Below are positions 6,001 through 64,000 of a stretch of DNA of 64,000 nucleotides, one piece after another. The position numbers and the translations under genes were made by a program. The notes beneath the pieces are model-generated. The model made no database searches. It was not told the origin of the DNA and saw only the letters and a program-made list of their open reading frames with translations. The first letter of the stretch is position 1; the number at the start of each line of letters is the position of its first letter. The stretch comes from Torpedo marmorata (Eukaryota), in assembly GCA_977017645.1 (NCBI GenBank), contig CDRNVU010000372.1, positions 1 through 64,000 on the forward strand, read 5' to 3'.

Positions 6001-9000
6001 CCACCTTAAATGATCCCACTCACCTACCCCCTGACATGATCCCACTCACCTACCACCTTAAATGATCCCACTTACCTACCCTCTTACATGATCCCACTCA
6101 CCTATCACCTTAAATGATCCCACTCCCCTACCACCTTAAATGATCCCACTCACCTACCCCCTCACATGATCCCACTCACCTACCCCCTTACATGATCCCA
6201 CTCACCTACCCCCTGACATGATCCCACTTAACTACCCCCTTAAATGATCCCACTCACCTACCACCTGACATGATCCCACTCACCTACCACCTTAAATGAT
6301 CCCACTCACCTACCCCCTTACATGATCCCATCACCTACCACCTTACATGATCCCACTCACCTACCACCTTAAATGATCCCACTCAGCTACCCCCTTACAT
6401 GATCCCATCACCTACCCCCTGACATGATCCCACTCACCTACCCCCTGACATGATCCCATCACCTACCCCCTTAAATGATCCCACTCACCTACCCCCTGAC
6501 ATGATCCCACTCACCTACCCCCTGACATGATCCCACTCACCTACCACCTTAAATGATCCCACTCACCTACCCCCTGACATGATCCTACTCACCTACCACA
6601 TGACATGATCCCACTCACCTACCCCCTGACATGATCCCACTCACCTACCCCCTGACATGATCCCACTCACCTACCCCCTGACATGATCCCACTCACCTAC
6701 CCCTTGACATGATCCCACTCACCTACCCCCTGACATGATCCCACTCACCTACCCCCTGACATGATCCCACACACCTACCCCCTGACATGATCCCACTCAC
6801 CTACCCCCTGACATGATCCCACTCACCTACCCCCTGACATGATCCCACTCACCTACCCCTTGACATGATCCCACTCACCTACCCCCTTACATGATCCCAC
6901 TCACCTACCCCCTGACATGATCCCACTCACCTACCCCCTGACATGATCCCACTCACCTACCCCCTGACATGATCCCACTCACCTACCCCCTGACATGATC
7001 CCACTCACCTACCCCTTGACATGATCCCACTCACCTACCCCCTTACATGATCCCACTCACCTACCCCCTGACATGATCCCACTCACCTACCCCCTGACAT
7101 GATCCCACTCACCTACCCCCTGACATGATCCCACTCACCTACCCCCTTACATGATCCCACTCACCTGCCACCTTAAATGATCCCACTCACCTACCACCTT
7201 AAATGATCCCACTCACCTACCCCCTCACATGATTCCACTCACCTACCCCCTCACCTGATCCCACTCACCTACCCCCTGACATGATCCCACTCACCTACCC
7301 CCTGACATGATCCCACTCACCTACCCCCTTAAATGATCCCACTCACCTACCCCCTGACATGATCCCACTCACCTACCCCCTGACATGATCCCACTCACCT
7401 ACCCCCTGACATGATCCCACTCACCTACCCCCTGACATGATCCCACTCACCTACCCCCTGACATGATCCCACTCACCTACCCCCTTAAATGATCCCACTC
7501 ACCTACCCCCTGACATGATCCCACTCACCTACCCCCTGACATGATCCCACTCACCTACCCCCTTACATGATCCCACTCACCTACCCCCTGACATGATCCC
7601 ACTCACCTACCCCCTTAAATGATCCCACTCACCTACCCCCTTAAATGATCCCACTCACCTATCCCCTGACATGATCCCACTCACCCACCCCCTGACATGA
7701 TCCCACTCACCTACCCCCTGACATGATCCCACTCACCTACCCCCTTAAATGATCCCACTCACCTACCCCCTTAAATGATCCCACTCACCTACCCCCTGAC
7801 ATGATCCCACTCACCTACCCCCTGACATGATCCCACTCACCTACCCCCTGACATGATCCCACTCACCTACCCCCTGACATGATCCCACTCACCTACCCCC
7901 TGACATGATCCCACTCACCTACCCCCTGACATGATCCCACTCACCTACCCCCTTAAATGATCCCACTCACCTACCCCCTGACATGATCCCACTCACCTAC
8001 CCCCTGACATGATCCCACTCACCTACCACCTTAAATGATCCCACTCACCTACCCCCTGACATGATCCCACTCACCTACCCCCTGACATGATCCCACTCAC
8101 CTACCCCCTGACATGATCCCACTCACCTACCCACTGACATGATCCCACTCACCTACCACCTGACATGATCCCACTCACCTACCCCCTGACATGATCCCAC
8201 TCACCTACCCCCTTAAATGATCCCACTCACCTACCCCCTGACATGATCCCACTCACCTACCCCCTGACATGATCCCACTCACCTACCCCCTTAAATGATC
8301 CCACTCACCTACCCCCTGACATGATCCCACTCACCTACCCCCTGACATGATCCCACTCACCTACCCCCTGACATGATCCCACTCACCTACCCCCTTAAAT
8401 GATCCCACTCACCTACCCCCTTAAATGATCCCACTCACCTACCCCCTGACATGATCCCACTCACCTACCCCCTGACATGATCCCACTCACCTACCCCCTT
8501 ACATGATCCCACTCACCTACCCCCTGACATGATCCCACTCACCTACCCCCTTAAATGATCCCACTCACCTACCCCCTTAAATGATCCCACTCACCTACCC
8601 CCTGACATGATCCCACTCACCTACCCCCTTAAATGATCCCACTCACCTACCCCCTGAGATGATCCCACTCACCTACCACCTGACATGATCCCACTCACCT
8701 ACCCCCTGACACGATCCCACTCACCTACCCCCTGAGATGATCCCACTCACCTACCACCTGACATGATCCCACTCACCTACCCCCTGACATGATCCCACTC
8801 ACCTACCCCCTGACATGATCCCACTCACCTACCCCCTGACATGATCCCACTCACCTACCCCCTTACATGATCCCACTCACCTACCCTTACATGATCCCAC
8901 TCACCTACCCCCTGACATGATCCCACTCACCTACCCCCTGACATGATCCCACTCACCTACCACCTGACATGATCCCACTCACCTACCCCCTTACATGATC

Positions 9001-10605
9001 CCACTCACCTACCCCCTGACATGATCCCACTCACCTACCCCCTTACATGATCCCACTGACCTACCCCGACATGATCCCACTCACCTACCCCCTGACATGA
9101 TCCCACTCACCTACCCCCTGACATGATCCCACTCACCTACCCCCTTACATGATCCCACTCACCTACCCCCTGACATGATCCCACTCACCTACCCCCTTAA
9201 ATGATCCCACTCACCTACCGCCTGACATGATCCCACTCACCTACCCCCTTAAATGATCCCACTCACCTACCCCCTTACATGATCCCACTCACCTACCCCC
9301 TTACATGATCCCACTCACCTACCCCCTGACATGATCCCACTCACCTACCCCTGACATGATCCCACTCACCTACCACCTGACATGATCCCACTCACCTACC
9401 CCCTTACATGATCCCACTCACCTACCCCCTGACATGATCCCACTCACCTACCCCCTTACATGATCCCACTGACCTACCCCGACATGATCCCACTCACCTA
9501 CCCCGACATGATCCCACTCACCTACCCCCTTACATGATCCCACTCACCTACCCCCTGACATGATCCCACTCACCTACCCCCTTAAATGATCCCACTCACC
9601 TACCCCCTGACATGATCCCACTCACCTACCCCCTTAAATGATCCCACTCACCTACCCCCTTAAATGATCCCACTCACCTACCCCCTTACATGATCCCACT
9701 CACCTACCCCCTGACATGATCCCACTCACCTACCCCCTTAAATGATCCCACTCACCTACCCCCTGACATGATCCCACTCACCTACCCCCTTAAATGATCC
9801 CACTCACCTACCCCCTGACATGATCCCACTCACCTACCCCCTGACATGATCCCACTCACCTACCCACTTACATGATCCCACTCACCTACCCCCTGACATG
9901 ATCCCACTCACCTACCACCTTAAATGATCCCACTCACCTACCACCTTAAATGATCCCACTCACCTACCACCTTAAATGATCCCACTCACCTACCCCCTGA
10001 CATGATCCCTCTCACCTACCCCCTGACATGATCCCACTCACCTACCCCCTGACATGATCCCACTCACCTACCCCCTGACATGATCCCACTCACCTACCCC
10101 CTGACATGATCCCACTCACCTACCACCTGACATGATCCCACTCACCTACCCCCTTAAATGATCCCACTCACCTACCCCGACATGATTCCACTCACCTACC
10201 CCCTGACATGATCCCACTCACCTACCCCCTGACATGATCCCACTCACCTACCCCCTGACATGATCCCACTCACCTACCACCTGACATGATCCCACTCACC
10301 TACCACCTGACATGATCCCACTCACCTACCCCCTTACATGATCCCACTCACCTACCCCCTTACATGATCCCACTCACCTACCCTCTGACATGATCCCACT
10401 CACCTACCACCTTAAATGATCCCACTCACCTACCCCCTTAAATGATCCCACTCACCTACCACCTTAAATGATCCCACTCACCTACCCCCTTAAATGATCC
10501 CACTCACCTACCACCTTAAATGATCCCACTCACCTACCCCCTTAAACGATCCCACTCACCTACCACCTTAAATGATCCCACTCACCTACCCCCTGACATG
10601 ATCCC
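1..10605. repeat. 26-bp tandem satellite/minisatellite, about 400 units, consensus GATCCCACTCACCTACCCCCTGACAT (variant ending CCACCTTAAAT); runs off the left edge
   Basis: ctcacctacc recurs at 1, 27, 53 (period 26); continuous to atccc at 10605; strong C-rich/G-rich strand asymmetry. Confidence 0.99.
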
Positions 10606-11468: not shown

Positions 11469-14400
11469 TTTTTTTTTTTATTTTTTATAATTTTATTTAG
11501 TTTTTAAAATCACAAAATACATAATCAAAAATAGTATATTATTCAAAATACATGTGATACATTTACCACCCCCCCTCCCTCCCTCCCCAACCCTCCCACA
11601 CTATTCTAATAAAGAAAAAAAAAAAAGAAAAATAAGAATATATAAAAATGTTAATTAAAAGAAAAGAAATAGAATGAGAAATAAAGTTAAGAGAGTTAGT
11701 ATGAGGAGAAAACTATTTCAAACTAACTCTATTTATATATTGGAGGTTACTTTTGTCAGCGGTACTAACTTTTAGAGAATTAATTCATACCCATAATTCT
11801 CATGTATGGGCTCCAAATTTTCAAAAAGAAATGATATTTGTCTCGTAAGTTATACGTAATTTTTTCCAGTGGTATACAAGAACGTAACTCTGCATGTAAT
11901 CTATCTAAATTCAAATCTAAGTCTGATTTCCAAGTAATAGCAATACATTTTTTTGAAATTGCTAACACGATTCGTAAAAATTCTATTTGATACATATTTA
12001 ATCTATTTCTAATACTAATTTTTTTAATATCTCCAAACAAAAATATCATAGGATCCATTGGAATCGTAATATTAAAAATTCTATCTAAAAAATCTTTAAC
12101 TTTAGACCAAAAATTTTTAATTTTCAAACATGACCATGTACAATGTACAAAAGAACCTATTTCATCTTTACATCTAAAACACATATCTGACAATGCCGGA
12201 TTGAATTTCTTTAATTTTTTGGGTGTTATATATAATTGATGAAAAAAGTTATACTGTACTAATCTATATCTAACATTAATAATCTTAGTCATACTCAATT
12301 TACACAATTCTTTCCAATGTTGTTCATCTATACTAATATTTAGATCTGATTCCCAATTTAATCTAGATTTATGCAGTCCTACTTTAGGTATCTTTTTCTG
12401 AAATAATTTATACATTTGCGATATAAATTTATTAACATTTCCATTAGTAATTAATAACTCTAACCCATCCTGTCTAGGAGATATTAATTGATTCCCTAAT
12501 TTCTCAACTAAAAATCATTTAACTTGATAATAAGCCAAAATTGTATTATGCATTATTCCAAATTTTTCTTTCAATCTAGAAAAAGTAACAAATTTTCCTG
12601 CCTCAAAACAATCTTTAATCTTCTTAATTCCTTTTTGATACCATAATTTTAAAAATTGATTATCCATAGAAAATGGTAGTAATAAATTCTGATATAATGG
12701 CATATTTAAAGAAATTGATCCTTTTCGCCCTATTTCATTATCTAATTGATTCCAAATCTCTAATAAATGTCTAATAATCGGTGACTTTTTCTTTTTAATC
12801 AATAATAATTTAGAATTCCATTTATAAATAATATCTTCCTTATTTCTTTCTCCTATATTACTTAATTCTATATTAATCCAAGCCGTATTTTTAGTTAAAT
12901 CAAATAGTTCATTTATAAATTTTAATTGTGCTGCCTTATAATAATATTGAAAATTAGGAAGTTGTAATCCACCCATTTCATATTCCCAAGTTAATTTATC
13001 CATACTTACTCTTGCCAATTTTCCTTTCCATAAAAACTTTCTAATAATATTTTTTAAATCTTTAAAAATTTTTTGAGGAATACCAAAAGGTATAGATTGA
13101 AAAAGATATTGAACTCTTGGAAAAATATTCATTTTAATACAATTCACTCTTCCCATTAAAGTTATAGGTAAATCTTTCCAATTATCCAAATCTTTCTTTA
13201 TTTTCTGAAATAAAGGTATGTAGTTTAATTTATATAAATTTTCTAACTTTGTATCCACTTTAACTCCCAAATATTTAATAGCTTCTTTAGCCCATTTAAA
13301 TTTTGTAACTTCTTTACATTTAGTATAGTCTCCTTGAGATAAAGCCATTATCTCACTTTTATCCGAATTTATTTTATATCCAGATATTTCACCATAATCC
13401 CTCAATATTTTATCTAATTGTTGAAGTGATTCAATAGACTTTGTCATATATATTAATACATCATCTGCAAACAAACTAATTTTATGCTCTTCTGCACCTA
13501 CTTTTATCCCATTTATATTCATATCTTTCCTAATCATTTCCGCCAACGGTTCTATTGCCAATACAAATAAAGCAGGTGACAATGGACATCCTTGTCTTGT
13601 TGACCGTGTCAAAGAAAATTTAGATGATATTTGACCATTTGTAATTACTTTAGCTGTAGGTTCCTTATATATAGTTTTAATCCAATTTATAAACGTGTTT
13701 CCAAATCCATATTTCTCTAAAACCTTAAATAAAAACTTCCACTCTAATCTATCAAATGCTTTTTCTGCATCTAATGCTATCACTAACGGTAAATCCTGTT
13801 TCTTTTTTTGTAAATTAATCAAACTTATTAATCTTGCTATATTATCCTTTGAATATCTATTTTTAATAAATCCTGCTTGATCTGGATGTATTAAAAATGG
13901 TAAAAACTTAGCTAATCTATTTGTCAAGATTTTTGCCATTAATTTATAGTCTACATTTAACAATGATATAGGTCTATACGATTCAGTTTTCAATACATCT
14001 CTATCCTTCTTTGGTATAACTGTAATAACAGCATTTAAAAATGTTTTCGGTAATAACTGAGTTTCCTTTATTTGAGTCAATACTTCCATATATATAGGTA
14101 TCAATAAATCTTTAAACTTCTTATAAAACTCTACCGGAAATCCATCATCACCAGGAGATTTACCACTATTCAATGATGATAGAGCCTCACCTACTTCTCT
14201 CATTGTAATTGGTAAATCTAACAAATCTCTATTAAAACTATTTAGTTTGGGCAATGTAATTTTAGATAAAAAATCATCAATTTTTACAACATCTTGACTC
14301 ATTTGTGAAGTATATAAATTTTGATAATATTCTTTAAATGAATTATTTATTTCTTGAGGTTTATAAGTTATTTCTCCATTACTTTTCTTTATAGCATTTA

Positions 14401-15583
14401 TAGTTTTGGAAACTTGTTCTTTCTTTAATTGCCATGCTAAAACTTTATGTGCTCTTTCTCCCAATTCATAATATCTTTGCTTTGTTCTACCAATTAATTT
14501 TTCTATTTTTCGAGTTTGTAATATATTATAATGTAATTTTTTCCCCATTAAACATTGTCTCTTAAAAATTGTTTTATTTCTTTGAAAATCTTTTTCCATA
14601 ACTTCAATCTCCCCCTCCAGTTTTTCTTCTTCTTTCAAGTAATCTTTTCTGATTTTTGCCGAGAAGCTTATTATCAATCCTCTTAAATATGCTTTTAAAG
14701 ATTCCCAAATTATAAACTTATCATCAACTGAATTGTTATTAATTCTTAAAAATTCCTGAATTTCTTTTCTTATATATTCACAGAAATCTTTTCTATTTAA
14801 TAAAGAAGAATCTAATCTCCAATTATATACAGTTTTTTCTTTCTCTGGAATTATACATGTCATTAATAACGGTGAATGGTCCGAAATTATTCTTGCTTTA
14901 TAAGAAATTTGAGTTATTCTATCTTGAATTTGTGAAGATATTAAAAATAAGTCAATCCTCGAGAATGAATTATGTCGAAAGGAATAAAATGAATAATCCT
15001 TTTCTCTAGGGTTTAACTTTCTCCAAATATCTACTAAATTTAAATCATCCATTAAATTAATAATTCTTTTAACTATTTTAGGTCTAACAGATGTTCTAGA
15101 TGTTTTATCCATATTTGCATTAAGACAACAATTAAAATCTCCCCCAATTAAAATATTTTCCTTAGCTTCAGATAAATGTAAAAAAGTATCTTGAATAAAT
15201 TGTTCATCCTCTGGGTTTATAATATATAAATTTTAAAAGGTCCATGTTTCTGAATAAATTTGACAATGCACCATAACAAATCTACCAGCTATATCCGTCA
15301 CTACTGATTGTATTTTAAATGGTAATTTTTTATTGATTAAAATCGCTACTCCTCTCGCTTTAGAATTAAAAGATGAAGCTACTACATGTCCTACCCATTC
15401 TCTCTTCAACTTTTGATGTTCTTTATCAGTCAAATGTGTTTCCTGTAAAAAAGCTATGTCTACTTTTAATTTTTTAATATATGCCAAAGTTTTTTTCCTT
15501 TTAATTGGATTATTAAGCCCATTAACATTAATACTTACAAAATTAATACTTCTAGAATCAACCATAATTAAATTTTGAACATT
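11469..15583 (-). mobile_element. 5'-truncated L1 LINE with complete but disrupted ORF2; 11-bp TSD taccttttcct (11458-11468 / 15584-15594)
   Basis: APE (SINVNGL, FLQETH, SDH), RT (YRPISLLN, DAEKAFD, QGCPLSP, LFADD), C-terminal CFRC...H..WSC; poly(A) tail at the left end. Confidence 0.96.
11780..15565 (-). pseudogene. L1 ORF2 (endonuclease + reverse transcriptase) in three pieces: 15233-15565, 12515-15112, 11780-12415
   Basis: ORF track; frame breaks near 15230 and 12515. Confidence 0.93.
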
Positions 15584-17683: not shown

Positions 17684-18260
17684 GACACCTGAGATGTCCT
17701 CCCTTCTTCAGAAAAGGTGGCTTCCCCTCTATTCAGCTCTCAGCAGCAAAAGGGCTCAGGCCCAAAATGTTTGTAGCCTTTTACTTCATTCTGTGTGACC
17801 TTCTGCAGAAGGCGGCATTAAGCAAAAAGAGAAAAAACTGCAAAGGAACATGTGTTGTCAGAGTCGAAAAGCTACTCAGCTCTGCGTGAGCACCCAGTGC
17901 TAGCATATACATCAAGATGACGAAGGAATGAATAACTTAGCTTCAATCTTGCTTGTGTTCAGTATTCACTCTCTGCTGCACTTTATTTAGACACACCCAC
18001 TGATATATACATCACATCCTATCACATGCCAGTTTAAGGGAATCCTATTGGCTGTCATCAATGTCTATAACAGAAACACCTGAATGGATACATAACATTA
18101 GGTTTGCCTCTGTGACAACAATAAATAAACATTTTGTACAATTGAGGGCATATTTCCCCACATGTTAACACCCCCACTTGCACTCACATTGTTACCTTTT
18201 CAAATCAAAAACACAATAAGGTTCTCTACCTTACATTATGTGAATCTCACTTTTACATAC

Positions 18261-21200
18261 TTAATCTCCAAACATAAATCTGGCAAACTTTGACAACTTA
18301 AACTTCGTTGCAGGTTTTTTTCATCACATCTGCTACCATCTGATCTGTTGGACAATATGCTAGACTTATTTTTCCAATGTTTACACTTCATCTTATAAAA
18401 TGATATTTTATGTCAATGTGCTTACATCTCTGTCGACTTACTGGGTTTTTAGCCAAAGCTATTGTCCCCTGGTTATCTTCATAAACCTTGGGTAGTGGGT
18501 ACTGGCATTTGTCCATACCTTCTAGCAGTTGTGTTAAATGCATACACTCCTGTATGGTTGCAGCTAAAGACATATACTCTGCCTCGCAGGTAGAAAGGGC
18601 AACAGTTGGCTGCTTTTTAGTTTTCCAAGATATTAAAGGACCATTGTCTTTTAGGCTTACACAATACCCAGATGTACTACGTCTATCAGTGATGTCAGCA
18701 GCCCAGTCTGCATCACTGTATGCATGTAGTCCCAGATTGTCCTTATCACATTTCCTGTAACACAATTCTTTGTCACTTGTACCTTTCAGATATCTTAGAA
18801 CGTGTTTAACAGTCATCCACTGTTCTTCTGTTGGTTCAGAGAAATACTGCGATAGTTTGCTTACAACAAAACTTAAATCGGGTCTGGTGCATGTATTCAA
18901 ATAGATTAAGCTGCCTACAGATTCTCTGTATCTTCTGGTATCACTTATCTTTTCTGAATCATCAGAGTAGTTCAACTTCTGCTCACAAGGTGTCACTCTA
19001 GGTTTACAGTCTTTCATGTGAAACCTCTCAAGTATTTTTTTAACATATTTCTCTTGTGACATTTTTACAGATCCATCGCTTTGTTCAAAATCAATGCCAA
19101 GAAAATGTTTCAGTTTTCCCAAGTCTTTCATTTTGAACTTGGCTGTCAACATTTCTTCACCACTCTCAGTGCATTTTCATCACTTGCAGCAATGATTACA
19201 TCATCAACCCAAATTATCATGATCACTTTTTCATTTTCTGTTTCTTTTGTGTATACACAATGATCAGCCGGGTTCTGCACAAAGTTGTTGTCATTCAGAT
19301 AGTCATGTAAAGTCTTGTTCCAGTTTCTGCCAGACTGTTTCAATCCGTACAATGACTTCTCTAGTTTATACACCACTTTTTCAGTTGTGTTGGTTTTCAC
19401 CTCATATCCCTCTGGTTGTTCCAGGTAGATTTCACAGTCTATTGGTGCATGTAGATATGCAGTTTTCACGTCCATCTGATGTAGAATCAGGTTTTCCTGT
19501 GCTGCTTTCTGCATCAGGACTCTGATGCTAGTCAGGTTAGCAGTAGGTGAGAAAGTCTCATCATAGTCCACACCCTCTTTCTGACTGTATCCTTTTGCAA
19601 CATATCTTGCTTTGTACCTGTTAGATCCATCAACATTGTTTTTAAGAGCATACACCCATCTTCCCCCACTGCCTTCTTACCCTCAGGCAGGTTGGTTAAG
19701 GTAAATGTATTATTTTCTCTCAATTGAGTGCATCTCTTCATCCATAGCATTAACCCATTCTTTTGAGTTAGGGGATGTTACAGCATCTGTAAATGTTAGC
19801 GGTACATCACACATTATTCTGTAACAGTAATCAATGTTCATGAGCACCTGATCATCACTCTCTTCTAACACATAATCACTCAGATAACCTGGTTTCTTTC
19901 TCTCTCTGGAAGGGTACCTCCTGTGCTCATGTTTTGTCTCATTTGGTTGTGTTTGATTGTCCTCATCAGGCTTAGCTGCCTGTGACTGGCCCTGACTTTG
20001 TTCTGGACTCACATCAGTATTTTGCCTGGTGTTATAAACACTTCTTGGCACTTCAAAGTCACAATTATCAGGAGACATGTCTGTCTGTGTCTCTTGTTCA
20101 ACATTGTCTTTGGTCACAAATGTAACCAGTCTGTGCTTCTGCACTTTTCCACTGTAAGGATAATAAATCATGTAGGCTGGGCTGTTCTTATCGTACCCCA
20201 CAAAGATACCCCTTTCACACCTTGAATCCAGTTTTCTTTTATCTTGTTTATAGGCGTAACACTCCAACCCAAATCTTTGCATCCTGGAGAGGTTAGGCCT
20301 TCGTCCTGTCAGTAGGAAGTATGGTGTCTGCTTTGTACGGTTGCTAAAACACCTGTTCCTTATTACAGCTGCTGTCTGCACTGCATAAGTCCATAGGTCT
20401 TTTGATAACTCGCTGTCTATAAGCATACACCTCGCCATGTCAAAGAGTGTGCGCCAGTTTCGTTCTGCCGTACCGTTCTGGTGTGGTGAGTATGGCGCTG
20501 AGGTTTCATGTCTGATCCCATTTTTTCTCAGTAGTGTCTGGTAAGCTTTTCCCATAAACTCTGCACCGTTGTCAGATCTAATGCATTTTATTTTACCATA
20601 TGGTGCTGTATCAGCAAAAAAACTTCTCTGTTGCCTGCACTGTGTCACTCTTTTGTTTTAAAAAATACACAAACACTGCACTGGAAAAATCATCAGTGAA
20701 TGATCATGCAAACCTATAGCCATTTCTAGACTCTGGATGTATCGGCCCTGCTATATCTGTGTGTACTAGCTCTAAAGCTGCTTTGGCTCTTACATCAGGG
20801 TCTCTGTTCCTTGTCTGTATAAACTTTCCCTGAATGCACACTTTACAAAATGGAGCAGGTTTGTTTGACTTACCCTTAATAGTCATACCATCAACAACAC
20901 CCTGTAATTTCTGGACATCATCATAGTTGCAATGCCCTAGGATCTCATGCCATTGCTGTATGTCATAGCACCCCTTACATTTATCATCACATTCAACATT
21001 TTTAGTTTGCAAGTAATATAATCCGTTATTCATGTGAATGTTAAACTTCGTACCGTCTCTGTGTATGTGGTAAACCACTTTATATGTGTTGTGGGCTAGG
21101 GATAGGTTTGGACATGCCCTGCTGACTGTCCCAGTGACTCCTCCCACAATCCCCTTGAATAAAGGCCATTGTGCCACAACTCCTCCCCCAGTCCGGGACA

Positions 21201-22510
21201 GATCAGCAGCTCGAATGTAGCACCATTCTATAACCAATAAAAGCCTTTCAGTTCATATACAACTTCCAGTCTTTTGGGAGTCATTGATAGGTGTATCAGT
21301 GTATGAGGACATCTCGGCCCTTTCTGAAGATCACAGTTGCTCCACTTGTAGTAGCTGCTTTCACAGAAAACATATCCTGTGAATATGATGGGACAAACAA
21401 AGCTTTTCTCAGCGTCGTGGTGTGCTGCTGCCCTCTGCTGTCGATCAAGCACACCTCTGCATCTCCTCGGCGCTCTGCGACTCCTCTGCATCTCGTGCCA
21501 TCAGCCAACTCCACGAAGTGTGTCTGGGGCTGGAAATCATCATCAAAGTTTTTAAACTTTGCAATATCCGTGACGATATGCAAAGTTGCTCCGGAATCCA
21601 CCATCAGTCCCTTGTCGTCGATACTGCGCCCTGGCTGGAATGTCCGACCTTCATCACTCGCCCGGAAGGTGTACTCAGTGTCACTCACCTCCTCCAAAAA
21701 CTTTTTCGCGTTGGCTTGCCGCTGTCTCCGTCTGCACGTTGAATCCCGATGTGTGGTGCTTTTACACAAGCTACACCATTGTTTGCGTCGATAGTCTCTG
21801 GCTTTATGCCCCTTTAGTCCACATTTAAAACACACCATGTAAGTGCTGTCGGCTCCACGGTCACTTCTACTTACTGAAGTTGGTAAACCGCGCGCTTTCA
21901 TTACATTGTCATCAGATACTGCTGCGCGCATTTTCTCAGTGTCTTCATAGCTCCTGAGTTTTGTTTTAAAGTCAGCAAAACATATCTCCATTTCACTTTG
22001 TGTGACATGAATAGCAAATGGTTTGTATGACTCTGGCAGCCCTTTCAATATCATTGCTACTAGTAGTCCATCACTTAATTTTTCATCAGCTTTTCTCAAA
22101 GCTGTGATTATTGTCTCAGCACGAATAATGTACTCCGTCACACTTTCACTGCTCGACTTTTGTAATGAAGACAGTTCTGTGTACAAGCCGATAACACGTG
22201 GCTTACCTTTGCCAGCATAATAGTCTCTTAAAATCTGCAGTGCTTTCCGTCCATCGTCGGCAGCGTCTCGCATAACCAGCGACAAACTTTTATCGTCCAG
22301 GAACTGTATTAGCTCTGCGTAGGCCTCGGCATTTTTCTCCTCATCTTCGGCTTCCTCATCAGAGGTCGGCTCATTTAAAATAGTATTTTTAAGCTTAACC
22401 AGTCGAAGATGGCCCAAAAACTTTGTCTCCCAAAGTTCATAGTTTTTCTCGTCTCCGTCAAAGACTAGCCGTGACCAGCGGCCACTCGGCTCAGCGACCC
22501 GTTGGCTCAT
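18261..22510 (-). pseudogene. Copia gag-pol polyprotein, frameshifted
   Basis: CFKCGLKGH knuckle, DSGAT protease, WHEILGH/CKVC and SDNGAEF/QNGTAER integrase, KARYVAKGY/MDVKTAYL/LYGLKQS/WVDD RT, SDADWA/DNQG/KHIDIKYHFIR RNase H. Confidence 0.95.
21066..21298 (+). mobile_element. 233-bp solo LTR nested in Copia pol; 5-bp TSD GTGTA
   Basis: TG...CA ends, AATAAA near 21236, gtgta at 21061-21065 and 21299-21303; removal restores DVLIHRDGTK. Confidence 0.88.
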
Positions 22511-23329
22511 GGTGCTAGCATAGCATGCTAATTCTCACCGGACATGCTGTACGTTGCAACTTCTTCCTCGGCGATAAATGGCTGCACTCGTCTGGGTGAC
22601 TCTGGGCCCATAACCTGTTGTCAGAATCGAAAAGCTACTCAGCTCTGCGTGAGCACCCAGTGCTAGCATATACATCAAGATGACGAAGGAATGAATAACT
22701 TAGCGTCAATCTTGCTTGTGTTCAGTATTCACTCTCTGTGACACTTTATATAGACACACCCACTGATATATACATCACATCCTATCACATGCCAGTTTAA
22801 GGGAATCCTATTGGCTGTCATCAATGTCTATAACAAAAACACCCGAATGGATACTTAACATTAGGTTTGCCTCTGTGACAATAATAAATAAACATTTTGT
22901 ACAATTGAGGGCATATTTCCCCACATGTTAACAGTCTCCTCCGCTTCTCCTTCTCAGACGGGGGTGATCTTCCCGTCCTCTGGTGCCCTGCTCCAGTCCT
23001 CCGCTTCCCCGGAATCTGCAGCCCCTCGTGGCTGCTGCCGGTTAAAAGGCGCTGCCATCTTGGGCGCAGACCCCGCGGTCGCGGGATCTTAAATAAAACC
23101 ACCGTCGGCTCCTTTAACGGGCCGTTCAAAGCCCGTGCGGAACCGATGGCAGTCGACTGGGCGGCTGGACCCTGCGGGAGCGCCGGTTTGTGTGGCACAA
23201 TATCACTACCACATCTAACTCATCATTGCAGCAGAGTCCTAAGGCAACATTTCAGCATAAAAGGGAAGAACATTAATACTTACAACTGGTTTCTCTCCCC
23301 ACCTCTCCTCGGTCCACTGACTCAACCTG

Positions 23330-23745: not shown

Positions 23746-23918
23746 AGCAGTCGGGTGCACCAGGCAGGCAACACAGCCTTCGGGATTCTCACTACAGAGA
23801 ATAGTGTCTGTAAGAGCCGTAGGCTCATTAACTTACCTTTGCTGCGGCGCTCCGATGCCTCGTCGGGTTGTGGAGCGCTCGCGTTGTCTGTGGGCCGTCC
23901 TCGGCCCGTTCTGTGCTC

Positions 23919-24600
23919 TGCGCATGCGCTGGAGTGCCGACGGGCGCATGCGCAGTATGGAGTGACGTCATTGTGCGCGGTGTAGTTTGGGAAATGTAGT
24001 ATGCGCGGTGGAGGGTGCGCAGTGGTATAGGAGCGATGGGGAATGCGCGAATTAGAGAAAAGGAAAAGGAATAAGATGTAGGAGGGTGAGTGAGATCTCC
24101 ATATCTTTATTGACCATTTTATAACGTCTTATACATCGTTTCAGAACATTGAACTGGTTACTTTGTAGTTTGGAATTGTTTAAAGAATCATTTAAAGAAA
24201 CTCATCATACATCGTTTTCAAGAACTGTTTATATTAAAGTCATTGAAGATTACTGCAAGTCACGTGTGTAAATAAAGATTTTGAACATATTGGACTTTGT
24301 TGATAAATTAATTAAAACGCGTCAAAGACAAGTATCTCACTTAGCCTCCAGGTGACTATTGTTGGATCGAAGTCACCACAATATAGTCAATAAAGAGCTG
24401 GCTGTTTGGAACAGAAAATTGAAGGAAAGAAGATAGAATAATCTCTCTGTGCTTTGGACTGATATTTAAAATAAAATGGCGGCCATCTTGAAGATCCCTC
24501 GAGTTGGGGGCAGTTTGTAATCCACATCCATCTGCCATGAATAACAGCCAGAGAGGGATTTAAAGCTTCAAATCTTATAGAAAAGTGTCCTATAAATACG
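23919..24600 (+). promoter_or_regulatory. LTR promoter motifs: NRF1-like GCGCATGCGC x2, CRE TGACGTCA (23963), back-to-back YY1-like aaaatggcggccatcttg (24473), TATAAA (24591)
   Basis: Motif matches in a CpG-rich U3; same motifs in the 3' LTR; function untested. Confidence 0.45.
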
Positions 24601-24839
24601 TTGGAGAAACCATTTTTGGAAATTCAGTGATATTAATGATGGATGTTGTGGTTGAAACTCGTTTGTGGATTGCAGCACATTACAGTCATTTGAAGTGGTA
24701 GGCATAAGTCTGTGGACTCCTTCAGTGTATCTTTAGCAAGTAAGAACACAGATTGGAATTGCTGCCGCTGGTCCATTGGGGACTGTTGATTTGGCTAGTG
24801 TTGTGTATGCTTGAAGGAAAGAGGAACAAGACGAGTAAA

Positions 24840-27621
24840 ATGGCCGCAGCAGCCACTGATACAGCAGCTACTGATGTATCAGCAGCTGATGCAGCAACCG
24901 CTGATGTTGCTGTTGAGGACCAACGTATTGAAGACATGAAGGTTGCGGATATTAAAGAAGAATTGAAGCGACTGAAAAAGGACATAAGTGGAAATAAAAA
25001 GGTTCTTGTCGAAAGATTGAAGCTGGCAAAGGATGAAGAGACAGCTTCATTAGATGAACAAGAAGATAACTTGGAAATGGCTGAAATTGTGTCACCAAAT
25101 GATGAAGAAATTGAAGTGGTTGAAGATGCAAAGGATATACAATTTGAATTGGATAAAAAGGTAAGTATGAAGACAGCATATGAACTGCAGGACAAAATAC
25201 AAGCAAGTGACAGTGTCTCAAATGCTGAAAGCAGGAGAAGCAAAAGAAGTTCTGGTTCGAGCTCCAGAGTTTTTCGTTCTTCAAATTCTGCATCGTCACG
25301 TACAAAGATTGATGTTAAATTGGCTGCTCTTCTTGCACAACAAAAAACGCTTAAGAATAAACATATTTTAGAACAAGAGGAGGAGCAGCTAAGACAAGAG
25401 AAGGAGCAGCTAAAGCAGATAAAAGAACAGTAGGAGCTGAAAGCAAACATTGCTATTGCCAAGGCAGAAAAGAAACCAATAGAAGGCTCAATGGTATCTG
25501 GTGCTAGAAGTAAATTATCTAAAGTGTCTGATAATAAAAGGTCATATTTAAAAAAGGAGTCACAGGAAAAGAAACCAACCAAAAGGATAGATATTTTAGA
25601 ACCAAGGATACAAAACCTACATATACAAGGACAAACCTTTCAAGAGCATATTGGTATCGAGTCACATGTACCAATGGTAACATCTGAAAGCAAAGCTGCG
25701 GCTTGGGTTCGGTCGAACGAAGCAGCTTCTTTGTTATTTGAGTCAAGCATCAGAAATATGGAAGAAACTACACCAGTAAGGTTTCCAGATACATTGCATG
25801 CAACAAGAGACGGTGAACAGAGCAATGTATTGTCATCCAAGGAAAGACAAAATGAAATTGCTGCATCATTGTTTCAGTTACAGTCTCTCTCTTCTTTACC
25901 CAAGAAAGAGATACAAATTTTTGATGGTGATCCACTTCAATATCAATCATTTATGAGATCTTTCAAACGCAATATTGAAGATAAATGCCAAGATCGTGAT
26001 GAATGTCTTTATTATTTGGAAATGTTCACAAAGGGACATCCAAAATAACTAGTAAAGAGTTGTAAACAAATGTCTTCAAAAAGAGGATTAGACAAAGCTA
26101 AGGCTTTACTGGAACAATATTTTGGCAACAAGCATCGAATTGCTTTAGCTTATATGGATAAAGCTCTTAAATGGACATCAATAAAACAAAATGATGTAAA
26201 GGCTCTGCAAGAATATACTCTGTTTTTAAGAGGATGTTGTAATGCTATGGAAGAAATCGATAATATTCGTGAGCTTGAAGTGCATAGTAATATGCGAATC
26301 ATCTTAGAAAAATTACCTTACAAGTTATGGGATATATGGAGAAATTTGGCTTGTGATTTACAAGTAAATTACGGTCGAAAAATTACTTTAAAGGATTTGG
26401 TAAATTTTCTTGAACGACAGGTGTACGTTGAGACGGATCCACTATATGGAAATACCAGAGATAATTCAATGGGCAAAGATGTAAGGAAGTCTAACACACA
26501 GTCTAGTCCGAAATTAAAAAGGAGTACTTTTGCTACTAATGTGCAAGTTATAAGTAAAGAAAAGGACAAAGTAAATAAGGAAAAGGAAAGTTTGCCTAAT
26601 GAAAAGAGTTGTTTGTTCTGTAAAGGTGGACATGCTTTGGAAATGTGTTTACGATTGGAAAAGAAGGAACATAAGGAAAAGATCGCTTTCTTAAAGGAAA
26701 ATTGAATATGTTTTAGCTGTCTGTGTAAAGGACACATCAGTAAAAACTGCGAGAAGTGAATTAATTGTAACATGCAATTTGAAACATCCTAGAATTTTGC
26801 ATATTCATAACAGAAACAAGGAATTGGAAAAGGAGCAAACAGAAACAAAGGAAACAACAGAAAATAATGTTATAACCTCGGTTCAGACAAGTGGTCTTAC
26901 TGGGGCCGGTGTGAATAACTGCAAACTTTCGATAGTGCCTGTACAAGTCAAGACCAAGAAAGGGGATGCAATAGTAAAAACATATGCATTTCTAGACCCA
27001 GGCAGCACTGCATCTTTTTGCACGGAAGGACTAATGAATAAACTTAATATTCAAGGAAGAAGATCAAGAATTATGTTAAAAACCATGGGACAAGAAAAGG
27101 TTGTTGAGACTAACATTGTTTCAGGCTTAGAGGTTGCTGGATTGGATGACAAAAAAATATGTGATCTTCCAAGTGTATATACTCAGAAGACTATGCCTGT
27201 GAATGAAGGAAATATTCCTCATCAAAAGGATATCCATCATTTAGCTTATCTGTGGAAGGTTTATTTACCTGAAATTAATTCTGAGATAGAAATGCTGATT
27301 GGTTCAGATGTTCCAAAGGTTTTGGTACCAAAAGAAGTAATAGAGAGTAAAAGGAATGGACCTTATGCTGTTAAAACCATGCTTGGTTGGACAATCAATG
27401 GACCACTAGAAAGAAATAATGATATTGCTCAGGAACAATTAGCGATAAATATTAATAGAATTTCGGTTGTGAAAGTTGAAGAGTTAAGCGAAGAGCAAAA
27501 AACTGTGAATAAGAAAATCACTTTTGAAGAAAAGAAAACAGATCAATGTGAAAATAAATCAATAGTATTTAAAACAACATTGAAGGAATTTCGTCAGAAA
27601 TGGATGAAAGTGAAGTATTAG
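24840..27621 (+). pseudogene. BEL/Pao gag-protease with N-terminal SAP-like motif; in-frame stops
   Basis: MKVADIKEELKRLKKDISGNKKVLVERL (SAP-like); IFDGDPLQYQSF (DUF1759-like); CLFCKGGH..C and CFSCLCKGH..C knuckles; YAFLDPGSTASF protease; GPYAVKTMLGWTINGP; stops at 25431, 26046, 26703, 26757. Confidence 0.9.
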
Positions 27622-28565
27622 AAGATGTTGCAAATAATACTATTGATTGTTCATGTGTAATTGAATCAGATACAGGAATAAAACAAGTGACTGAAAACAA
27701 ATCTGAATGTAGATTTTGTAGTTCAGAGGTTACAACAGACAAAGCTAATGAAGAAATATTGCAATGTGATGTAAAACTGGAAAACACAGAAAATTGTGCT
27801 GATGGAATAAAGAATAATGTGAATGATAATTTAATGCAATTGAATTCAGAGAACAAAATGTTGAAAGGGGAATTGGAAATATTAGATAATCAAGAAAACA
27901 GTAAACAGAAAGATTTAATTGTAAGTAAAACTCGCAAAGTCAGAAAGCGGAAGAAAAGAATATCTGCTGAAGAAATGAATACAGTTATTGAGGAAAGAGA
28001 TTCAGCATTATCAAAATGTAAAAGGTTGGAGGAAGATATTAATGTTTTAAAAGAGAACAAGTTATTGGTTAATAACACAAAACAGTTGACTTTAAAAACC
28101 AATCAAGAATGTAAATTGAATGTTCAACAATTAACAATGCAGAAAGAATGTGATATTGCATTGCAGAAATGTAACAAACAAGATGAAGAAATAAAAAAAA
28201 TTCAAGTTTTCCGCAACAGGATTGACAATAGAAATATCAATGTATCACATGATATTTTGACTTTAGATCAAATTATTAATTTCTCAGAAAGAACTGAGAC
28301 TGAATTGAAAGTTGCAAAATTGGATTTGGAATTGCAGGAAAGAGCAATAGAAACCAGAGTGGTTAAACAGTCCTGTTTATTAAAATCGAAAGGATCAAAT
28401 AAATATTCAAATTCTAGTTCTACGAGTTTAAATACTTCACATGAGAAGTGGAATAATGAAGAAAGGAATAAAGTGAAACGACATGCTGAAGAAGTGCCTT
28501 GTGTTAAATTCAAAAGAAAAACTGTATCTATTTTGTCTGAGGAAGATCTGAGGATTACTGGTTGA
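27600..28565 (+). CDS. 321-aa coiled-coil ORF inside the BEL element, containing a MIPOL1-like segment
   Basis: KKRISAEEMNTVIEERDSALSKCKRLEEDI..NNTKQLTLKTNQE aligns with recalled human MIPOL1 KMRITAEEMSALIEERDAALSKCKRLEQEL..NNMRHLTAENNQE. Confidence 0.75.
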   Translation: MDESEVLEDVANNTIDCSCVIESDTGIKQVTENKSECRFCSSEVTTDKANEEILQCDVKLENTENCADGIKNNVNDNLMQLNSENKMLKGELEILDNQENSKQKDLIVSKTRKVRKRKKRISAEEMNTVIEERDSALSKCKRLEEDINVLKENKLLVNNTKQLTLKTNQECKLNVQQLTMQKECDIALQKCNKQDEEIKKIQVFRNRIDNRNINVSHDILTLDQIINFSERTETELKVAKLDLELQERAIETRVVKQSCLLKSKGSNKYSNSSSTSLNTSHEKWNNEERNKVKRHAEEVPCVKFKRKTVSILSEEDLRITG

Positions 28566-28599
28566 CGTTTTAACTCAGATTATGGAGATAAAAGAGCTT

Positions 28600-28790
28600 T
28601 AAAGAGACATTGTGATTATTATGGATAATTCAACTTCAAGAAACTCCTGGTTACTTGGAAAAATTATTGAGACTTTTCAAGACAAAGAGGACTTGTGCGT
28701 CAAGTGTGAATTAAAGCTAAGACTGGTTTTCTAAACAGACCTATTTAACAAGGTCTGTCTTTTGTTGGAGACAGAGGAACTTTGATAAAT
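28600..28790 (+). pseudogene. BEL/Pao integrase C-terminal remnant (DUF5641-like)
   Basis: VIIMDNSTSRNSWLLGKIIETFQD..GLVRQV..K.KTGFLNRPI. Confidence 0.75.
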
Positions 28791-30092
28791 ATAAACTGAC
28801 TTTATTTGTTGTTGTATACTTTACAGGTTACAGACTTTTGTTGATTCAGAGTTATGGTAAACTCTGCGTTTATGAAGAAGGAAGAAAGAAGATTTGTATT
28901 GTTTGAATGTTATGGTTATTGTTATTTATAATTTATAGTGTAATTATTATTTAAGACTTTACGTCTAATTATAATAATTAGGGGCCGGTGTAAGAGCCGT
29001 AGGCTCATTAACTTACCTTTGCTGCGGCGCTCCGATGCCTCGTCGGGTTGTGGAGCGCTCGCGTTGTCTGTGGGCCGTCCTCGGCCCGTTCTGTGCTCTG
29101 CGCATGCGCTGGAGTGCCGACGGGCGCATGCGCAGTATGGAGTGACGTCATTGTGCGCGGTGTAGTTTGGGAAATGTAGTATGCGCGGTGGAGGGTGCGC
29201 AGTGGTATAGGAGCGATGGGGAATGCGCGAATTAGAGAAAAGGAAAAGGAATAAGATGTAGGAGGGTGAGTGAGATCTCCATATCTTTATTGACCATTTT
29301 ATAACGTCTTATACATCGTTTCAGAACATTGAACTGGTTACTTTGTAGTTTGGAATTGTTTAAAGAATCATTTAAAGAAACTCATCATACATCGTTTTCA
29401 AGAACTGTTTATATTAAAGTCATTGAAGATTACTGCAAGTCACGTGTGTAAATAAAGATTTTGAACATATTGGACTTTGTTGATAAATTAATTAAAACGC
29501 GTCAAAGACAAGTATCTCACTTAGCCTCCAGGTGACTATTGTTGGATCGAAGTCACCACAATATAGTCAATAAAGAGCTGGCTGTTTGGAACAGAAAATT
29601 GAAGGAAAGAAGATAGAATAATCTCTCTGTGCTTTGGACTGATATTTAAAATAAAATGGCGGCCATCTTGAAGATCCCTCGAGTTGGGGGCAGTTTGTAA
29701 TCCACATCCATCTGCCATGAATAACAGCCAGAGAGGGATTTAAAGCTTCAAATCTTATAGAAAAGTGTCCTATAAATACATTGGAGAAACCATTTTTGGA
29801 AATTCAGTGATATTAATGATGGATGTTGTGGTTGAAACTCGTTTGTGGATTGCAGCACATTACAGTCATTTGAAGTGGTAGGCATAAGTCTGTGGACTCC
29901 TTCAGTGTATCATTAGCAAGTAAGAACACAGATTGGAATTGCTGCCGCTGGTCCATTGGGGACTGTTGTTTGGCTAGTGTTGTGTATGCTTGAAGGAAAG
30001 AGGAACAAGACGAGTAAAATGGCCGCAGCAGCCACTGATACAGCAGCTACTGATGTATCAGCAGTTGATGCAGCAACCGCTGATGTTGCCAT

Positions 30093-30560
30093 AATAGTGT
30101 CTATTCCGCTGACTATACTATCCCCAATTACCACAATGTTTTTCTTTTCTACCCATTTCTTGAATTGCTTCCTGAATCACAGTGCTATGGTCAGGTCACT
30201 CATCCCTTCTACAGCATCCACTGAGGGAGTTAGAATCTCCAACCTGTTGGACGAGCTCAAGTGCTGAAACTCCTCCAGCACTACATCTTGGATTCCCCCT
30301 ACCTTTCTCACGAGCAGTCATGCCCTCATCTTCCTGACCAGAGTAGAATTGAAGCAGTTTAACTAATGGGACTGACTGCATTCTGAAACACAATGTCAAG
30401 GTAACTCCCTCCCTCCTCCCTGATGTGTTACAGTGTTTGAAGCTGTTTCCAACTGAATCGTGAATTTGAGCCTGAATTTCTCGAACAGCCAATATTTGCT
30501 GCAGATGTGGTCACCTGGAACCAACATCATGCAGCCACAGCACATCACCTGACCCTACAT
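30093..30560 (-). mobile_element. CR1 ORF1 (SGNH esterase) fragment; continues at 23755-23808 across the BEL insertion
   Basis: VIGDSIVSGIDTI on the right flank and DTILC..ESRRLCCLPGA on the left flank. Confidence 0.75.
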
Positions 30561-54100: not shown

Positions 54101-54197
54101 TAAAGAACTTTGGTTCCACCTCTGACTTCAGGTGTAATTTTGCCTGGACTCCTTGGATTTTTCCCAGGTTTTTTTCGAATACCGTCTTGTATTTCTT

Positions 54198-62871: not shown

Positions 62872-63810
62872 TGAAGGATGATTATAGTGACTTCAATCCA
62901 ACAAATAGTCACTTGGAGGCTAGGTGAGACACTTGTTCTTGACACGTTTAATTAATTTACTACCAAGTCCAATATGTTCAAAAAACTTTATTTACACACG
63001 TGACTTGCAGCAATCTTCAATGACTTAAATATCTTCTTTAAACAAAACATAAATAATTCTTGATAACGATGTCCAATAAATTCCTTTAAACGATTCCTTT
63101 GACTGTATTTAAATGTTCAATGAATTGACTTTAAAGACTTTAAACCATAAATGAAACGGTCAATGAAAGATATGGTGATCTCACTCACCCTCCTCTAAGC
63201 CGCCATCTTTTTCTATTCTTTTTCCCGATTCGCGCATGCTCAATGCGCATATTCCACCGCGCATACTCCACCACGCACACTCCACCGCGCACACTGCCGT
63301 CATTTCCCAACTGCGCATGCGCCCGTCGGCACTCCTGCACATGCGCAGTACTAACTAGGCCTAGCATGGCCTATCAAACACCGCAACTCCTCCGTAACCC
63401 GCCGAGACCATCGGAGCGGCGCGATCAAGGTAGGTAATTAAGCTTACGGCTCTTACACCGGCCTCTAATTATTATAATTAGACGCAATGTCTTAAATAAT
63501 AATTACACAATCAATTATAAATAACAATAACCATATAACAGTCAAACAATATACAAATCTTCTTTCTTCATAAGACCAAAGTTTACCATAACTCTGAATC
63601 AACAAAAGTCTGTACCTGTGAAGTATACAACAAATAAAGTCAGTTTGTATTTATCAAAGTTCTTCCGTCTCCAACAGAAGGCAGACCTTGTTAATAGGTC
63701 TATGTAGAAAGCCAGTCTTACTTTTAATTCGAACTTGACGCACAAGTCCCCTTTTGTCCTGAATAGTCTAAATAATTTTTTCAAGTAACCAGGAGTTTCT
63801 TGGAGTTGAA
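62872..63810 (-). mobile_element. Second, diverged copy of the BEL/Pao family: 3' LTR (62872-63457, shorter variant) plus internal 3' end
   Basis: Reverse complement starts tgtaagagccgtaag, ends ccttca; PPT and integrase C-terminal remnant match 28630-28988. Confidence 0.9.
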
Positions 63811-64000
63811 CCAAACAAAGATATTATGAATTAGGAGAAAGAGCGCATAAAGTTTTGGCATGGCAATTAAAAAAAGATCAAACTTCTAGAACTATAAATG
63901 CTATAAAAAAAAAATTCTAGGGAAATAACGTATAAACCTTGAGAAATAAATGATTATTTTAAAGACTATTATTTGAATTTATATAAATCTCAGATTGATC
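63811..64000 (+). mobile_element. L1 ORF2 fragment running off the right edge
   Basis: KQRYYELGERAHKVLAWQLKK, as in the other L1 copies. Confidence 0.88.

Follow-up and report, generated by a model that had tools for sequence, protein, structure and literature searches.

Retroviruses that transduce oncogenes carry the captured gene as a Gag fusion and depend on a helper; they hold single captured genes and are retroviral, and in these respects differ from the BEL/Pao chimera described here. LTR-mediated retrocopies are known in animals (Tan et al. 2016, PMC5131818), where internal open reading frames (ORFs) are partly replaced by partial spliced mRNA from more than one parent gene, in sense and often in frame, with secondary retroposition. 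Among them are the Pao element BATUMI, which has a two-gene chimera, and BEL18_AG, which has a retrocopy. Maize Bs1, as presented in the same paper, combines exon pieces from three host genes in one LTR element and has a hybrid frame and switch points common to its copies. In crocodilian ERV4 (PMC4299795), coding sequences of KIT ligand and nectin3 are found between LTRs, and one of the captures has taken the place of a gene of the element. The mouse circRFWD2 pseudogenes (Dong et al. 2016, PMC4897178) display an exact non-colinear exon junction without poly(A), are present in tens of copies, and have flanks enriched in LTR sequence.

The element reported here lies in a 64,000-nucleotide stretch of Torpedo marmorata DNA (the window). 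It shares the above features of the animal retrocopies, i.e., spliced host mRNA replaces an internal ORF between parts of one element family. However, three genes are involved, one via a back-splice, there are at least 121 young and at least 111 older copies, and the cargo is fused to an intact Gag-protease frame that is held across about 19% divergence; the word “circular” is absent from the main text of PMC5131818. It resembles Bs1 in the traits listed, but the copy number of Bs1 is 1–5 and one of its pieces departs from the frame; Bs1 is also a plant element, and is described in PMC5131818 with no mention of a back-splice. The ERV4 cases differ in being retroviral, with single genes in 6–9 copies, and purifying selection is reported for KIT ligand. 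With circRFWD2 the LTR link is one of enrichment, by a mechanism called mysterious, whereas here the junction belongs to a defined family, is flanked by its LTRs, and lies in a polyprotein frame, beside two linear mRNA pieces and with a partner element at hand. The separate parts are thus precedented by LTR retrocopies, Bs1 and circRNA pseudogenes, and for their combination no precedent was found in the literature. That search, with Repbase and Dfam outside it, also gave no precedent for a MIPOL1-retrotransposon association, circMIPOL1, a back-splice junction captured by a retrotransposon, a host gene captured by a non-autonomous BEL/Pao element in cartilaginous fish, a Pao retrocopy in elasmobranchs, or a capture of BRCA1 or Elongin A.

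The element spans 23809–29563 and is a non-autonomous BEL/Pao derivative (Table 1), with paired 575-bp LTRs and a 5-bp target duplication of the BEL/Pao kind. In the window copy two units stand in tandem, in the order LTR, internal part, LTR and a partial internal part to position 30089, followed by the last 7 bases of an LTR and the 5-bp duplication; 23809–24910 and 28989–30089 show 99.6% identity over 1,102 nt. Gag-protease gave 431 matches to BEL polyproteins, the best with 55–61% identity across residues 420–940, and many of the matching proteins bear PF05380, PF00078, PF17921 and PF18701. DUF1759 was detected in another copy (L034), and three putative zinc knuckles were noted by eye only. 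P0083, a full-length BEL polyprotein, matches the element solely at residues 129–911 (25086–27555) and 1944–1994 (28606–28758). Thus reverse transcriptase (RT), RNase H and the integrase core are missing and a remnant of the integrase end is left, in agreement with the initial annotation.

Table 1. Features of the BEL/Pao chimeric element in the window
Feature	Positions	Strand	Remarks
Target site duplication, left	23804..23808	+	5-bp; identical bases at 30097–30101
5′ LTR	23809..24383	+	575 bp; TG start, TA end, not CA; limits set by target duplications of dispersed copies
Putative primer-binding site	24384..24404	+	Inferred from position, directly 3′ of LTR in copies
BEL Gag	24840..26920	+	SAP domain 24927–25022, DUF1759 core; broken in window copy
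BEL aspartic protease and linker	26921..27493	+	Active-site motif matches autonomous protein P0083
BRCA1 exon A piece	27494..27603	+	Host 149-nt exon, donor near G000:C61:25497229; 24-nt deletion
Large BRCA1 exon, 5′ part	27604..27918	+	Host acceptor near C61:25488548; 80% identity, 298 nt
MIPOL1 exon m3, 3′ part	27911..28016	+	Host C40:64492683–64492513
MIPOL1 exon m4, 105 nt	28017..28121	+	Delimited by m3 donor and m5 acceptor
MIPOL1 exon m5, whole, 95 nt	28122..28216	+	Host C40:64385806–64385712
Back-splice junction	28216..28217	+	m5 donor joined to m1 acceptor, 206 kb upstream in host gene
MIPOL1 exon m1, 5′ part	28217..28289	+	Host C40:64591881–64591746; 81-nt deletion after
Piece of MIPOL1 exon next after m1	28290..28365	+	
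Elongin A piece and stop codon	28361..28565	+	About residues 420–526 of P0050, 37-residue gap
BEL integrase end, decayed (DUF5641 region)	28604..28790	+	94% identity (176/188) to same-family element with 2,054-aa open frame
Short purine-rich tract	28976..28988	+	By position, before second LTR
Second LTR	28989..29563	+	
Second tandem unit, start	29564..30096	+	Cut at 30089, joined to last 7 bases of an LTR
Target site duplication, right	30097..30101	+	5-bp

The chimeric element is still spreading in the genome. Target duplications are exact in 8 of the 10 copies with both ends printed, shifted by two bases in one and absent in one. LTR pairs, given by 13 of 18 copies, differ by 0–3.8% (median 1.6%), and the junctions are common to dispersed copies, a sign of secondary retroposition. 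Eleven of 150 Pao RNase H matches fall within open frames of at least 2,000 aa, and the one such element tested is 94% identical to the integrase remnant, the comparison lying within 241 bases of the partner. The earlier suggestion of amplification in trans is strongly supported by this same-family element and by the dispersal of the copies, each flanked by a target duplication of its own.

A captured MIPOL1 fragment had been proposed as the cargo, and it is real, but it is one of three host gene parts; those of BRCA1 and Elongin A, as well as the back-splice junction and the in-frame fusion to Gag-protease, had been missed. A phmmer search with the ORF against 1.84 billion proteins gave 32 matches at E≤0.001 (best E 7.8e-25), and of the 10 looked up, 7 are MIPOL1/MIPO1, 2 hypothetical and 1 BRCA1. 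In the ESM Atlas MIPOL1 was at the top with 0.96 and 150 shared features, which is a lead only. Copies match residues of about 88–184 and 246–348 of protein P0002. The host loci of BRCA1 and MIPOL1 are single-copy and on different contigs; the host Elongin A locus, exon m4 (with an empty pattern search) and the exon after m1 were not located in the genome. The older copies show about 94% identity to the host exons, and the window copy about 81%. The element joins exons at ends that carry canonical splice sites in the host, and an 8.7-kb host intron is missing between the two BRCA1 pieces, which shows an intron-free mRNA capture, as had been surmised. At the BRCA1-MIPOL1 joint of older copies a short microsimilarity of 2–4 exact bases was seen by eye; the other original joints were lost to deletions or are without host sequence.

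The stop-free frame (27573–28565, 321 codons counted from the ATG at 27600) was found as initially annotated, but the cargo is not a separate ORF, since it starts at 27494, upstream of this ATG, and in 117 of the 121 copies the open frame is longer. In intact copies the cargo continues the Gag-protease frame, for a total of about 1,300 aa. The 321-codon ORF thus arose only because the window copy has a frameshift near 27588, within the BRCA1 piece. The four gag stops (25431, 26046, 26703 and 26757) were correctly reported, and a frameshift is found near 26771. However, the suggestion of an open cargo beside a decaying gag is not borne out in this copy: gag-protease has 5 lesions in about 2,650 nt and the cargo has 1 in about 1,070 nt, as expected by chance.

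The most probable origin, at roughly 70%, is that BEL/Pao template switching built a three-gene chimera by way of a circular MIPOL1 RNA, and that the cargo is filler. Germline host RNAs would have been packaged in BEL/Pao particles, and the reverse transcriptase would have switched from the protease end to BRCA1 mRNA, then to circular MIPOL1 RNA, to Elongin A mRNA, and back to its own integrase end. The back-spliced RNA would have been copied through its junction, in one round or several. The product would have kept the LTRs, Gag and protease without RT, RNase H and integrase, and later copying may have used the enzymes of intact family members, while cargo pieces were shed over time and the remainder drifted from the host exons. 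The family points to LTR particles as the place where such RNAs may be packaged and templates switched.

With respect to the cargo itself, the most likely role is that of translatable filler, whereby the frame stays open to the old pol end and the amino acid sequence can vary almost freely. All three gene joints are in frame, as are five deletions (24, 120, 81 and 195 nt, and 37 codons), for a total of 8 of 8. Over 224 codons with 128 host differences there are zero stops vs about 5 expected by a hand estimate, with about 4% of changes creating stops. The dN/dS of host vs window copy is 0.72 (95% 0.45–1.18, 224 codons), and in the MIPOL1 part dN is 0.220 and dS 0.225. Values for the window copy are quoted because alignments of six other young copies (dN/dS 0.75–0.85) run past deletions. 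The open frame appears selected, the protein sequence barely so. The case for a frame kept open is based on the history of the family and not on lesion counts in the window copy. It is probably kept open because an early stop would lengthen the 3′ UTR by more than 1 kb and make the RNA less stable. The old and young subfamilies trace the stepwise birth of a chimeric frame and allow selection on the frame alone to be compared with selection on the protein.

With the same origin, the tail could be a working protein of the element or the host, i.e., a coiled-coil, basic extension of Gag-protease that helps particles to assemble or to enter the nucleus, or a decoy that draws off the partners of MIPOL1 or Elongin A. 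The lack of stops and the in-frame joints and deletions also fit this reading, the MIPOL1 coiled coil is the cargo piece least cut by deletions, and variants in at least 3 of 41 young copies (a biased sample) show 5 N vs 10 S in the MIPOL1 part. However, N is lowered in these counts because the copies were chosen by likeness to the cargo protein, and singletons have an N/S of 0.54 in the cargo vs 0.87 in gag-protease, with 10 duplicate loci removed and protease figures that appear inflated by misaligned copies. Also against a working tail are the near equality of dN and dS in the MIPOL1 part, the position of the BRCA1 stretch outside RING and BRCT, and the loss from the young family of a conserved Elongin A stretch that is present in the older copy L056. 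Such a tail is thus unlikely, and it is doubtful that a functional tail helped the family to reach thousands of copies in several ray species. Speaking against the filler reading, N/S for shared variants of the 41 copies is 0.44 in the cargo and 0.49 in gag-protease, which would suit protein constraint, in the same biased sample.

The order of MIPOL1 exons is m1>m3>m5>m6 on the minus strand of host contig C40 vs m3-m4-m5-m1 in the element. The non-colinear junction coincides to the base with an exon end on either side, each with a canonical splice site in the host, and may be read from the sequence as the mark of a back-spliced circular RNA. It is improbable that it arose from linear RNA, by trans-splicing or an ancestral duplication of an exon block, or from a chance template switch at both exon ends. 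The circular parent is deduced here from DNA sequence, the exon ends have the letters AG in common as a possible switch seed, amphibian MIPOL1 (P0008) contains a repeated exon-sized unit, and Dong et al. (PMC4897178) caution that other routes lead to non-colinear junctions. However, apart from the exactness of the junction, just 1 of 19 m1-pattern matches lies within the MIPOL1 locus (a first m1 pattern gave nothing, and host m1 was located by another), and no sequence from outside m1–m5 was seen among the MIPOL1 parts of the element. For exon m6, which follows the circle, the host itself was the single match in 78 candidates, and a human MIPOL1 circRNA appears in a review table (PMC8284075). 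Three m1-pattern matches on contig C80 were considered as linear MIPOL1 retrocopies and rejected; L058 proved to be a member of the family that has lost 12 nt spanning the junction. At the m1 boundary, two shark RefSeq isoforms are distinguished by a single residue, which is the pattern of a tandem acceptor. With a circular precursor, the family would be a fossil of germline circular RNA in cartilaginous fish. Dong et al. 2016 (PMC4897178) did not settle how circRNAs come to be copied into genomes, and in this family an exact back-splice is found between the LTRs of a partnered element.

A three-gene chimera that was first made by a LINE as a processed copy and later taken up by a BEL element is very unlikely. 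LINEs are abundant in the window, and the 5′ flank of L056 is not BEL: its 800 upstream bases have no match to the window, and BEL identity was seen on its 3′ side only. However, in L056 Elongin A passes straight into the BEL integrase end, the cargo ends without poly(A) or a target duplication of its own, and every piece is internal, sense and in frame.

A generic coiled-coil likeness, or a normal part of BEL polyproteins, is refuted: the ORF had no Pfam family (the same Pfam copy gave none for named MIPOL1 proteins either) and the word-based protein search was empty (0 of 1,642 candidates), but the phmmer E value, the DNA identity of older copies to host exons, and the lack of a match among 120 BEL proteins (best E 0.29) decide against both.

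When whole proteins were used to search for the host exons, copies of the element dominated the results. Such copies may muddle the annotation of BRCA1, MIPOL1 and Elongin A in ray genomes, and as transcribable exon copies they could feed small-RNA pathways against those genes.

The Gag and protease of the element are those of BEL/Pao, with 431 relatives, the closest 55-61% identical, and the best protein matches are in rays and sharks, as fits a cartilaginous fish, probably a ray. RT, Pao RNase H and integrase domains are present in many of the 431 Gag-protease relatives. Only residues 129-911 and 1944-1994 of the full-length autonomous BEL polyprotein P0083 align with the element. Thus the gap at the RT/RNase H/integrase core reported in the initial annotation is real. 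Membership tests class the element as a non-autonomous derivative of BEL/Pao and as an LTR-mediated retrocopy. The suggestion that the cargo is kept open while gag decays finds no support in the window copy, whose frame has five lesions in gag-protease and one in the cargo, distributed as chance would give. The LTRs of the window element (24381-24383) and of the fetched copies terminate in TA, the usual LTR ending being CA. In four other BEL proteins (P0114, P0101, P0132 and P0178) the listed domains include Gag and the integrase end but neither RT nor RNase H, and P0114, from tilapia, lists a DnaJ domain besides; these proteins could represent additional internal replacements, or gene models that were merged.

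Positions of the element in the window and of the located host MIPOL1 exons, the latter in gene order
Feature	Position	Location	Remark
Element	23809-29563	window	between 575-bp LTRs
Second tandem unit, start only	cut at 30089	window	then last 7 bases of LTR and 5-bp target duplication
Host MIPOL1 exon m1	64591881	contig C40, minus strand	
Host MIPOL1 exon m3	64492683	contig C40, minus strand	
Host MIPOL1 exon m5	64385806	contig C40, minus strand	
Host MIPOL1 exon m6	64323912	contig C40, minus strand	

A phmmer search with the 321-codon ORF found ray BRCA1 at residues 6-114 (51%, E 9.6e-13) and MIPOL1 at residues ~110-216 (best E 7.8e-25). The MIPOL1 origin first proposed for this stretch is thus confirmed, but MIPOL1 is not the sole gene, as BRCA1 and Elongin A were also captured. 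Shark MIPOL1 detected at least 111 scored places in the genome at 50-72% identity, and these are an older layer of the element family. Two of them, L055 and L056, share 94% identity with the host exons, versus 81% for the window, and have longer cargo pieces than the window. Elongin A makes up their 3′ part (31 matches, best E 6.5e-35; 81% and 100% in two aligned stretches). It follows the MIPOL1 piece in the older copies after ~8 codons assigned to neither gene, and in L056 continues directly into the BEL integrase end. The window's final 68 codons match Elongin A across a 37-residue gap (E 6e-14).

The host BRCA1 gene gives one match, on contig C61. Its large exon begins after a canonical acceptor, the donor of the preceding exon is 8.7 kb away, and the element fuses two BRCA1 exons at 27603|27604. 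Host MIPOL1 exons m1, m3 and m5, fetched whole, are flanked on both sides by canonical splice sites (the labels m1-m6 denote order only); searching the host genome turned up neither m4, sought by pattern, nor the exons that lie between m1 and m3. The element's m3 match ends at the m3 donor, and its m5 match begins at the m5 acceptor. Canonical exon ends of both host genes are thus directly joined in the element without introns. The earlier observation is confirmed and extended, and its interpretation as mRNA capture by an LTR element is supported. The host BRCA1 exon (L051) is without three codons kept by the element (window 27604-27625) and by the skate protein P0007; the copies therefore retain an earlier form of the host gene.

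The MIPOL1 exons of the element are in the order m3, m4, m5, then m1 and its following exon. In L055 and L056 the m5 donor is fused, without loss or gain of a base, to the acceptor of m1, which lies 206 kb upstream in the host, and the window alignment is in register across the junction (28216|28217). That m1 starts at a real exon start is independently backed by two shark RefSeq isoforms, which differ there by one serine, as expected of a tandem acceptor. The exon after m5, m6, is single-copy (one match, 78 candidates). By the criterion that Dong et al. (PMC4897178) apply, an exact non-colinear junction, the m5-m1 joint is probably, at about 80%, the trace left when a circle of m1 to m5 was reverse-transcribed. 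One review table (PMC8284075) includes a human MIPOL1 circRNA. The same junction would result from trans-splicing, or from an exon duplication since lost; the circular origin is the preferred reading. One older copy (G000:C42:9563886-9564980) has a 459-aa open frame that contains a tandem repeat of part of the MIPOL1 cargo, back-splice junction included. At L058 (G000:C80:15601200-15601700) and two further places on C80, 12 nt are deleted across this junction, and these copies have an in-frame MIPOL1-Elongin A joint of their own.

The copy-number check was run with the cargo ORF on the 6.2-Gb genome. At least 121 scored matches at 92-100% identity came from 50,005 first-look candidates; candidates do not equal copies, and 121 is therefore a floor. 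The open frame exceeds the window's 330 codons in 117 of the 121 and reaches at least 1,250 in 18. Each of 18 dispersed copies, fetched for their long frames, has a single frame of 1,134-1,332 aa, and in all eight that were translated it is unbroken from protease to cargo. Exact target duplications are found in eight of ten copies with both ends printed. LTR pairs, obtained from 13 of the 18, diverge by 0-3.8%, one being identical over 577 bases, which indicates that the family moved recently. All 30 element bins are covered by contigs of runs X2, X4 and X5, from three other organisms and three studies; run X1, the best holder, may be the source of the window and was excluded from this count. 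L049 (G000:C446) and L050 (G000:C1582), two of the 121, contain the window insertion with its flanks on other contigs at 98.9-99.8% identity, and are segmental duplicates or haplotype contigs. An older family member at window 62881-63827 (minus strand) comprises an LTR and integrase end, 72-78% identical to the element and 88% to L062 over 165 nt; close to the end of the window, LINE-like sequence cuts into it.

Pao RNase H has at least 150 matches in the genome, 11 within open frames of at least 2,000 aa. For one of these 11 elements a stretch of 241 bases was compared with the window; it has an undamaged integrase end that shares 94% identity (176/188) with 28604-28790, the match starting where the cargo side ends. 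This identity supports a putative partner mobilizing the element in trans.

Over the history of the family the pattern is unlike that of the lesions in the window copy. Relative to the older copies, the young copies have deletions of 24, 120 and 81 nt, lack a further 195 nt where MIPOL1 meets Elongin A and, by protein-level comparison, lack 37 codons inside Elongin A. The frame is kept in all five (chance 1 in 243); with the three gene-gene joints, also in frame, the chance for all eight events, treated as independent, is 1 in 6,561. Among 128 host-window differences in 224 codons there are no stops, where a hand estimate predicts ~5. Yet dN/dS between window and host is 0.72 (0.45-1.18), the MIPOL1 part has dN 0.220 and dS 0.225, and the changes are skewed to A and T. 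For variants common to at least three of 41 young copies, N/S is 0.44 for the cargo and 0.49 for gag-protease, though these copies were picked by cargo-protein likeness. The simplest reading is that selection keeps the frame uninterrupted; an open frame might, for instance, spare the RNA the decay to which long 3′ UTRs would expose it. A working protein tail is the rival reading, and improbable.

The element works like several known systems: the LTR-mediated retrocopies with partial mRNAs of Tan et al. (PMC5131818), among them a two-gene chimera in a Pao element; maize Bs1, with three parent genes and 1-5 copies (PMC5131818); 33 pseudogenes in mouse that contain a back-splice junction and are flanked by LTR-rich sequence, whose mechanism Dong et al. 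(PMC4897178) left open; and crocodilian ERVs that captured single mRNAs (PMC4299795). As far as the literature was searched (open-access main texts), new is the combination of a back-splice junction in the polyprotein frame of a still-moving element, three parents, at least hundreds of copies, and old and young layers.

Elsewhere in the window, a satellite array (1-10605) has 409 copies of a 26-bp unit with 93% matches. An LTR element at 17853-22933 (minus strand), which from its motifs we take to be copia-like, has 318-bp repeats 96.9% identical and broken pol frames. LINE copies with endonuclease-RT frames are at 11481-15574, 47030-49362 and 54197-59941, one with an ORF1-like frame.
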